DNA of 8,834 bases from a virus (taxonomy: Monodnaviria; Loebvirae; Hofneiviricota; Faserviricetes; Tubulavirales; Inoviridae): the IMG/VR virus record IMGVR_UViG_2531839441_000001, one strand, 5' to 3'. The notes under the pieces were generated by a model, which saw nothing but the letters and a program-made list of their open reading frames with translations, did no database searches and was not told the DNA's origin. A program made the translations under genes and the position numbers. This document shows, one piece after another, positions 1,974-2,127 of the stretch. Within the stretch, counting starts at the first letter, position 1, and the number at the start of each line of letters is the position of its first letter.

Positions 1974-2127
1974 TTTTCACCCTCTTGATTTTTGTTTAGT
2001 TTAATGCAACTTAGCAAAATTGCATTTGTGCACACTTGCACTTGTGCATTGTGTTTTTTTGTGTATTATTTTTGCAATGTTGCACATTTGCACACCGTTT
2101 TCTCATTAAAGCTTCTGGGGAGGGGAA
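1974..2127. promoter_or_regulatory. divergent control region between regulator and rep with tandem 8-bp repeats (candidate operators/iterons)
   Basis: Four tandem octamers TTGCATTT GTGCACAC TTGCACTT GTGCATTG (2020-2051) and three tandem octamers TTGCAATG TTGCACAT TTGCACAC (2072-2095), each on a strict 8-bp register; AT-rich; ends in the rep RBS GGGGAGGGG (2118-2126). Confidence 0.5.

Follow-up and report, generated by a model that had tools for sequence, protein, structure and literature searches.

Phased octamers upstream of rep in an Escherichia coli filamentous prophage as probable operators of a ribbon-helix-helix-type, RstR-like repressor

What is the role of two strictly phased runs of 8-bp repeats that occupy the 154-bp gap between the gene for a 62-aa regulator and the divergent replication gene, rep, of a filamentous (inovirus) prophage of Escherichia coli? 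The prophage forms the stretch of DNA analysed here (8,834 nucleotides, IMG/VR virus record IMGVR_UViG_2531839441_000001; hereafter, the window). A first-pass annotation, made from the sequence alone, had proposed that the repeats are operators for the divergent regulator and rep transcripts or, alternatively, iterons bound by the Rep protein. The comparative evidence obtained here favours the operators: phased arrays lie beside about 40 homologous regulators, the box cores covary with the regulator, the boxes overlap candidate promoters, and the regulator is homologous to a protein annotated as RstR, the CTXphi repressor. For these reasons, which come from sequence comparison, we consider it very likely that the octamers are operators of the adjacent 62-aa protein, a ribbon-helix-helix (RHH)-type, RstR-like immunity repressor. 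The regulator and its boxes would most likely form an immunity and copy-control module, a functional and partly homologous counterpart of the RstR/ig-2 module of CTXphi.

The left cluster (2020-2051) is formed by four octamers, TTGCATTT GTGCACAC TTGCACTT GTGCATTG, and the right cluster (2072-2095) by three, TTGCAATG TTGCACAT TTGCACAC; in both, the octamers follow one another at exactly 8 bp and share a TGCA core. This is how the first-pass annotation had read them, and the distance of 52 bp that it gave between the clusters is confirmed as their start-to-start offset. Tandem Repeats Finder returns a period of 8 for both. Two further boxes, ATGCAACT (2004-2011) and a degenerate TAGCAAAA (2012-2019), lie in phase to the left of position 2020, so that the left array comprises six boxes (2004-2051). 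TGCA sites are concentrated here, with 8 of the window's 38 falling within positions 2005-2092, against at most five in any other 100-nt stretch, and runs of four and three such sites at exact 8-bp spacing are found nowhere else in the window. When the intergenic region was shuffled 20,000 times with its dinucleotides preserved, runs of at least three appeared in 0.1% of the shuffles and runs of at least four in none (0/20,000). The two arrays are 4 bp out of register, the last left core and the first right core being 28 bp apart; among relatives this spacing varies between 28 and 48 bp, with a change of phase, and neither a continuous filament nor a fixed loop geometry is therefore supported. 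Across 56 TGCA boxes from seven loci, the information resides at positions 2-5 (1.2-2.0 bits), whereas positions 7-8 are 80-86% A/T. Moreover, in the relative from E. coli 700481 (L002), whose regulator is 98% and whose Rep is 91% identical to those of the window, all TGCA cores are kept, and the box substitutions that separate it from the window fall in the spacer, at positions 7-8. This pattern of conservation within the boxes argues for selection on the core.

The palindromic boxes might instead act through structure in single-stranded DNA or in RNA, serving as the origin of the minus strand, as a hairpin for packaging or as an intrinsic terminator. A terminator-like hairpin at 2028-2049, followed by a T-run, was indeed flagged, and several imperfect inverted repeats span the region. 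However, positions 1995-2105 folded as single-stranded DNA gave a z score of -1.47, with 18 of 200 shuffles folding at least as well, and the search for Rfam families returned no match. The genes annotated at 1357-1973 are all on the minus strand, so that there is no adjacent plus-strand gene in need of a terminator, and the hairpins are not kept in those classes of related loci whose boxes are direct repeats. The hairpins, the terminator-like one included, are best seen as a by-product of the repeated palindromic core, and we hold a structural role of the boxes to be most improbable.

Operators of this design are known from RHH repressors. ParG, which acts at the parFG operator and the parH centromere of TP228, recognises boxes of 4 bp that always have an A/T-rich spacer of 4 bp between them, so that the period is 8 bp, with the boxes in direct or inverted orientation and one array just downstream of the -10 element (PMC3413123). 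The window shows the same design, with six plus three adjacent boxes at strict 8-bp spacing, a 4-bp core that holds the information and an A/T-rich spacer, and its right array has the same position relative to the -10 element of a predicted promoter (see below). Single ParG dimers multimerise cooperatively, and their helical scaffold is constant, whereas the ribbon on it is a portable element that sets specificity (PMC3413123). MetJ likewise binds tandem 8-bp met-boxes, one dimer per box with the palindromic core at the dyad (PMC3413123). The ribbon of CopG reads TGCA / GCAC (in its wider form, TGCA / GCA(C/T)), the core also found in the boxes of the window (PMC3413123). In the ribbons of all three proteins, positions 2, 4 and 6 contact bases, and the N-terminal strand of the 62-aa regulator, SRKSIGIS, has the alternating polar and hydrophobic pattern of those of ParG (KRVNVNFD), MetJ (KKITVSIP) and CopG (KRLTITLS) (PMC3413123). 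There are differences as well. ParG, the sole RHH family with even weak sequence matches to the regulator, all of them below threshold, has a long flexible N-terminal tail, a ParF ATPase partner and a function in centromere binding, whereas no ParA/ParF partner is present at the window. MetJ and CopG have no detectable sequence homology to the regulator; MetJ requires S-adenosylmethionine as co-repressor, and CopG binds a 13-bp pseudo-symmetric element with ribbon residues that differ from those of the regulator in spite of the shared core. The omega protein of pSM19035, also without sequence similarity, binds heptad arrays with a period of 7 bp, not 8.

The regulator itself has the organisation expected of such a repressor. 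It was predicted to consist of an N-terminal strand (residues 2-9), helix A (residues 10-27) and helix B (residues 33-61), and an AlphaFold model built with 69 homologues (mean pLDDT of 87) is extended over residues 1-9 and helical over residues 10-27 and 33-61, that is, it has the strand-helix-helix fold of about 45-60 residues that characterises RHH proteins. The strand S2-R3-K4-S5-I6-G7-I8-S9 shows the alternation of polar and hydrophobic residues, following basic residues, that is typical of the RHH ribbon. R3 and K4 do not vary among the 69 homologues, and positions 6 and 8 always hold a hydrophobic residue, whereas positions 5, 7 and 9 depend on the specificity class (see below). The model and the strand pattern thus support the assignment of the regulator to the RHH superfamily at the level of the fold, in agreement with the first-pass annotation, which had called the 62-aa protein RHH-like. 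At the level of sequence, the regulator matches PHROG 2503 (E of 5.5e-29), a family of "unknown function", and a profile search of 1.84 billion cluster representatives retrieved only 91 relatives. ParG (PF09274) is a weak Pfam match in 25 of the 69 family members. Sequence searches of the PDB with the regulator returned nothing significant; in a profile search of the same database the best match was an unrelated RNA polymerase subunit (E of 0.17) and the second ParG (1p94; E of 0.36), neither of them significant. In a separate search bearing on the fold, the RHH proteins ParB of pCXC100, MazE6, TacA, omega and Reg576 appear lower in the list of matches, mixed with unrelated proteins. Escherichia phage If1 (L042, NC_001954) carries, in its annotated "major intergenic region", an unannotated 63-aa open reading frame (ORF; MATPKRTTMAIVAERKLKLERLAIDASHTAGRAITWTDIVNHLIDNY...) that is homologous to the regulator family (tblastn E of 9e-8); it lies at 1486-1677 (+) of L042, which corresponds to about 5119-5310 (-) of the record, and the sequence upstream of this ORF showed no obvious array of 8-bp boxes.

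The arrays appear to be placed where a repressor of both transcripts would bind. The candidate rep promoter (Table 1) has the top rightward score of the intergenic region with a sigma-70 position weight matrix, and the equivalent rep-side promoter, anchored on a conserved ACTTG, scores at or near the top in most related loci. The candidate promoter of the regulator was placed by position; it scores below the three best matches in the window, and the same hexamers score 5.4 in L002. Across the loci scored, a -10 element recurs at a conserved position, at 25-46 nt from the ATG of the regulator, and reads TATAAT in Photorhabdus (L005), TACAAT in Providencia (L006, L012, L013) and in L036, and TATGAT in L008 and L014; in the window, the -35 hexamer of the candidate, ATGCAA, is the reverse complement of box 3. 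The right array covers about +1 to +20 of the predicted rep transcript, box 6 (2044-2051) lies over the predicted rep -35, and boxes 1-3 are inside the candidate regulator promoter. In both directions, then, the boxes appear to overlap positionally conserved candidate promoters.

Table 1. Genes, candidate promoters and putative operator arrays at the regulator-rep locus (coordinates of the window)
Feature	Coordinates	Strand	Description
TolA-like gene	1357..1722	-	121-aa secreted protein with TolA C-terminal domain; Pfam PF06519, E 4.5e-12
62-aa regulator gene	1785..1973	-	divergent from rep
Candidate regulator promoter	1998..2025	-	-10 TAAACT (2003..1998), 16-bp spacer, -35 ATGCAA (2025..2020), predicted start ~1991
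Putative left operator array	2004..2051		six phased octamers
Candidate rep promoter	2042..2069	+	-35 TTGTGC (2042-2047), 16-bp spacer, -10 TATTAT (2064-2069), predicted start ~2076
Putative right operator array	2072..2095		three phased octamers, from about the predicted rep transcription start to ~+20
rep	2128..4110	+	660-aa replication endonuclease, Phage_GPA family; Pfam PF05840, E 6e-48

The strongest evidence on what binds the boxes comes from related loci. Searches with the regulator recovered about 40 of them, from Enterobacterales (including Photorhabdus and Providencia), Pasteurellaceae, Vibrio and metagenomic inoviruses. The regulator is divergent from rep in all related loci, and the surveyed loci share a layout in which an array of three boxes adjoins the rep-side gene, the other elements being an A/T-rich promoter core, the conserved ACTTG and a distal array; the three-box array is found directly upstream of the rep-side gene in every specificity class. 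The phase of the left array and its TGCA core are kept in the relatives from E. coli, Photorhabdus and Providencia and in a metagenomic viral contig (L014). In autocorrelation analysis, a lag of 8 or 16 is the strongest in most classes, lags of 8 and 16 having mean match fractions over the loci of 0.40 and 0.38, respectively, as compared with a background of about 0.29. The comparison of control regions that the first-pass annotation had suggested as a check thus finds phased 8-bp arrays beside these homologous regulators, and the cores vary with the N-terminal strand: the dominant box core is TGCA for regulators with the strand SIGIS, NIGIN or SIGIT, GTTAA (as GTTAAC) for AIAIT, TCACA for NLGVP, TTGAC or TTTAC for QIAFT, ATTCA or GAATA for TTISI, and CATGC for DTTVRI, the strand of the environmental RstR (see below).

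It is this comparison that decides against iterons, the alternative put forward in the first-pass annotation, under which the octamers would mark the plus-strand origin or serve the self-regulation of rep. The repeats are directly upstream of rep, and iterated short repeats beside the rep gene are typical of iteron-type replicons. However, in two relatives from E. coli Sx181-0-1 and ESC818 (L003 and L004), a Rep that is identical to that of the window at 652 of 660 positions (99%) is found beside an unrelated intergenic region, in which GTTAAC boxes (GTTAACGT GTTAACAC TTTAACAC) precede rep in the same register and two more GTTAAC boxes, 16 bp apart, lie farther left. The regulator of L003 and L004 is only 53% identical to that of the window, with most differences in the N-terminal half, and DNA identity with the window starts exactly at the rep ATG. 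Near-identical Reps beside GTTAAC boxes and a divergent regulator indicate that the boxes follow the regulator, not the Rep. Conversely, the Reps encoded at these loci fall into three Pfam families (Phage_GPA, Rep_trans, and Phage_CRI with G2P_X_C), and TGCA boxes accompany both Phage_GPA Reps and the Rep_trans-type Reps of Photorhabdus (L005), Providencia (L012) and L014, while in other classes the same box architecture is found beside Reps of the Phage_CRI/G2P type. The cosine similarity of intergenic 6-mers tells the same: it has a mean of 0.37 for loci of the same strand class with different Rep families, and of 0.10 for loci of different strand class with the same Rep family. The repeat is thus neither specific to a Rep family nor does it covary with the Rep, whereas repressor and operator covary independently of rep. 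On the comparisons with L003 and L028 and on the survey of Rep families, iterons were rejected, and we give them hardly any credence.

The same switch bears on a host factor. The boxes could be sites of a host nucleoid-associated or global regulator, or a cluster of -35-like TTGCAx hexamers recruiting RNA polymerase, as TTGCAC, TTGCAT and TTGCAA each match TTGACA at four of six positions and the region is AT-rich. The TTAGCAA at 2011-2017 may also resemble half of a SlyA/RovA site. RovA, a regulator of the host, binds the promoter of rep in YpfPhi (PMC4266046). However, within E. coli the boxes change from TGCA to GTTAAC together with the strand of the regulator, while the sequence from the rep ATG rightward is unchanged, and the cores of other classes (GTTAAC, GAAT, CATGC) are not -35-like. 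Moreover, the combination of a 4-bp core, an AT-rich spacer and a strict phase of 8 bp fits RHH arrays rather than sites of polymerase or nucleoid proteins (PMC3413123). Because the core switches within a single host species, we regard a host factor as quite unlikely.

A repressor function is further suggested by the kinship of the regulator with RstR. In tblastn searches of deposited phages, the regulator matched, with 47% identity over 82% of the query (E of 1e-8 to 2e-8), rstR of GQ466611 and KR063268, that is, the "environmental" allele carried by pre-CTX and by CTXphi of strain IB1617; RstR-like proteins of the Vibrio anguillarum phages VAI1 and VAI2 were also found. Alignment of the family profile with the environmental RstR by hhalign gave a probability of 97.8% (E of 7e-13), in support of the homology. 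The ig-2 of the environmental rstR also has phased boxes, of the CATGC type, and pre-CTX and VAI2 have the same divergent arrangement of regulator and rep. The deposited 86-aa "RstR" (L040, pre-CTX KR063268, 2414-2674; L041, GQ466611) probably starts 22 codons too early; to judge from the family alignment and the 64-aa annotation in VAI2, the likely start is MEKRGDTTVRI, and the extra codons in the annotation overlap the CATGC boxes that resemble operators.

Of the eleven rstR alleles that are recognised, eight were found in reporter assays to repress the promoter of their own ig-2 in an allele-specific manner, and these eight include three short ones, calc (180 bp), 5 (204 bp) and 6 (192 bp) (PMC11509585). 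The published forward primer for rstR-6 encodes MKKKYTSLRV and matches the start of a family member from a Vibrio cyclitrophicus phage at 29 of 32 nt; the primer was not found in viral contigs. To judge from the termini encoded by the primers, rstR-6 is probably a member of the regulator family. For RstR-calc, the sequence and its ig-2 were recovered from viral contigs with the published primer, and homology to the regulator family was not demonstrable (hhalign probability of 13.6%). RstR-calc has 59 aa (L045, 504-683; also L046) and a sequence pattern resembling strand-helix-helix, and the ig-2 of Calcutta-type CTXphi holds three copies of a 13-bp motif, CTTAGAAnnTAAG, operator-like in appearance. 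In the literature searched, no paper naming both RstR and ribbon-helix-helix was found. The regulator of YpfPhi/CUS-1 is presumably a helix-turn-helix (HTH) protein and would hence belong to a different family. It has been called an RstR homologue (PMC4266046).

The resemblance to CTXphi extends beyond the protein. In both systems rep diverges from a small gene for a repressor, putative in the window, and the operators occupy the short stretch that separates them; repressor and operator form allele-specific (heteroimmune) cassettes within an otherwise conserved phage (PMC11509585), and there is a link to XerCD/dif integration, dif-like sites being present in the window and close E. coli relatives of its prophage adjoining hipBA at the dif region. 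The two differ in that the Rep of the window is of the Phage_GPA type, not RstA. RstR-ET and RstR-class, which are HTH proteins that bind as tetramers to long operators, have about 112 aa, whereas the regulator of the window has 62 aa, is RHH-like and is associated with 8-bp boxes. Experiments have demonstrated superinfection immunity and an allele-specific silencing of the rep promoter for the V. cholerae alleles only (PMC11509585). The homology to RstR also bears on a centromere-like role, in which the RHH protein would coat the arrays to maintain or partition the replicative form, in the manner of ParG and omega, with control of transcription being secondary. However, neither the window nor any of the related loci examined contains a gene for a ParA-type ATPase, the arrays coincide with candidate promoter elements of two divergent genes, and the homologous CTXphi alleles are annotated as RstR, the rstR alleles of CTXphi acting as immunity repressors (PMC11509585). 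We therefore think a centromere improbable and keep to the reading of the boxes as operators.

On that reading, each box, with its 4-bp TGCA core and A/T-rich spacer, would accommodate one repressor dimer, whose two-stranded beta-ribbon would enter the major groove at the TGCA dyad, and contacts between the dimers on adjacent boxes, at a distance of 8 bp, would make their binding cooperative, as with ParG and MetJ. With the right array over the predicted rep start and box 6 over the predicted rep -35, RNA polymerase would be excluded, and rep, the presumed target of repression, would be silenced together with the downstream phage genes. The left array, over the spacer and -35 of the candidate regulator promoter, would mediate negative autoregulation. 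Specificity would reside in the N-terminal strand and the box core, swapped together as a cassette, and different cassettes would make phages heteroimmune.

Several observations weigh against this reading. The model of the regulator is that of a monomer with an unpaired strand, so that the dimeric ribbon that defines the RHH fold is absent from it, and Foldseek found no significant match to the model in the PDB. The sequence does not significantly match any curated RHH family and is below every Pfam threshold: the best Pfam match of any family member is ParG (PF09274) with an E of 0.017, and the sole match of the window regulator is the irrelevant MCM6_C (E of 0.036). Both candidate promoters have weak -35 hexamers and moderate scores, and a strict promoter scan of the window listed neither. 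In the Pasteurellaceae loci, the periodicity is not dominated by a lag of 8. Physical linkage between the regulator gene and the intergenic DNA means that their covariation is in part due to co-inheritance rather than to recognition. Lastly, the NIGIN regulators of Providencia and the NLGVP regulators of Pasteurellaceae share the three presumed contact residues and yet have different cores, and a simple residue-to-base code, which was considered, is therefore unsupported.

The surroundings of the module are those of an inovirus. The rep product also matches PHROG 91 ("nicking at origin of replication"), and rep is followed rightward by genes for a G5P-like protein, small coat proteins, a pIII-like adsorption protein, a pVI-like protein and the Zot/pI assembly ATPase, ending in the start of a secretin gene that is interrupted by an insertion sequence. 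The secretin (pIV-like) ends after 116 codons in the 8181-8834 region, where an IstB-like insertion sequence helper ORF follows on the opposite strand (8541-8834), and virions of the window prophage could probably not be exported. The TolA-like protein has a signal peptide and matches PHROG 5772 ("unknown function"); its gene is downstream of that of the regulator on the same strand and, judging by gene order, may be on the same transcript. In Ff-type phages, domain III of TolA is the co-receptor, and a secreted periplasmic TolA-like copy could act as a decoy and lead to superinfection exclusion; in L003, a DUF2726 protein takes the position of the TolA-like gene. The G+C content is 30-38% over the TolA-like gene, the regulator gene and the intergenic region (about 1400-2200) as compared with about 50% in the rest of the phage, which fits a separately acquired regulatory module and agrees with the mosaic junction at the rep ATG. 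A megablast search of the phage collection with positions 1300-4200 gave no match.

The left flank (1-908) resembles DNA of the CPZ-55 prophage, being 86% identical to yffO/yffP of K-12 and 99.9% identical to E. coli TOK-001, so that the inovirus copy of the window is not beside hipBA, unlike its relatives L001-L004. An inverted pair of dif-like XerCD sites occupies 1041-1134, with AGTGCGCATAATGTGTTACACGTTATGTTGAAA at 1041-1073 and an imperfect inverse at 1110-1134; the two are separated by a GC-rich hairpin (1075-1105), a layout that recalls the forked attP of CTXphi, and a third dif-like site lies at 893-925. In L002, the same structure lies directly against hipA. In L001 (E. coli UTAK-18), two identical copies of a second, different inovirus (647-7606 and 11828-18787) flank a partial phage of the window type that retains only the TolA-like gene, the regulator and rep, an arrangement that is one of polylysogeny or tandem integration at dif; this second inovirus encodes a 162-aa HTH regulator, which may be of the YpfPhi/CUS-1 type, and a "phage/plasmid replication" Rep.

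We also think it reasonably plausible, though far from assured, that the locus is one member of an undescribed RHH-fold branch of inovirus immunity repressors, the alleles of the CTXphi type then spanning two unrelated folds. This branch would cover PHROG 2503, about 90 clusters at 50% identity, including the environmental rstR and probably the type-6 allele, and recombination between the start codon of rep and the C-terminal half of the regulator gene, which is conserved, would exchange its cassettes of N-terminal ribbon and 8-bp box array. RHH repressors acting on tandem 8-bp boxes (ParG, MetJ) and divergent immunity cassettes in dif-integrating inoviruses (CTXphi RstR/ig-2) were known already. 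What is new here is the assignment of an uncharacterised family to a repressor role and an RHH fold, its kinship with an rstR allele, and the ribbon-and-box structure of the cassette, seen in a natural swap of TGCA for TTAA. A likely function is thereby proposed for PHROG 2503, which has no Pfam family, and a link is made to an rstR allele that is used in typing and has not been understood structurally. The swap beside 99%-identical rep genes is a natural experiment on how an RHH ribbon reads DNA. In enteric bacteria and vibrios, virulence and superinfection are shaped by filamentous prophages, whose immunity groups govern which phages can share a cell. The ribbon and the box core would offer a simple rule for predicting heteroimmunity among the dif-integrating inoviruses of E. 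coli, Pasteurellaceae and Vibrio and, if the RHH branch is real, the heteroimmunity groups of filamentous prophages would be readable from their ribbon and box sequences.

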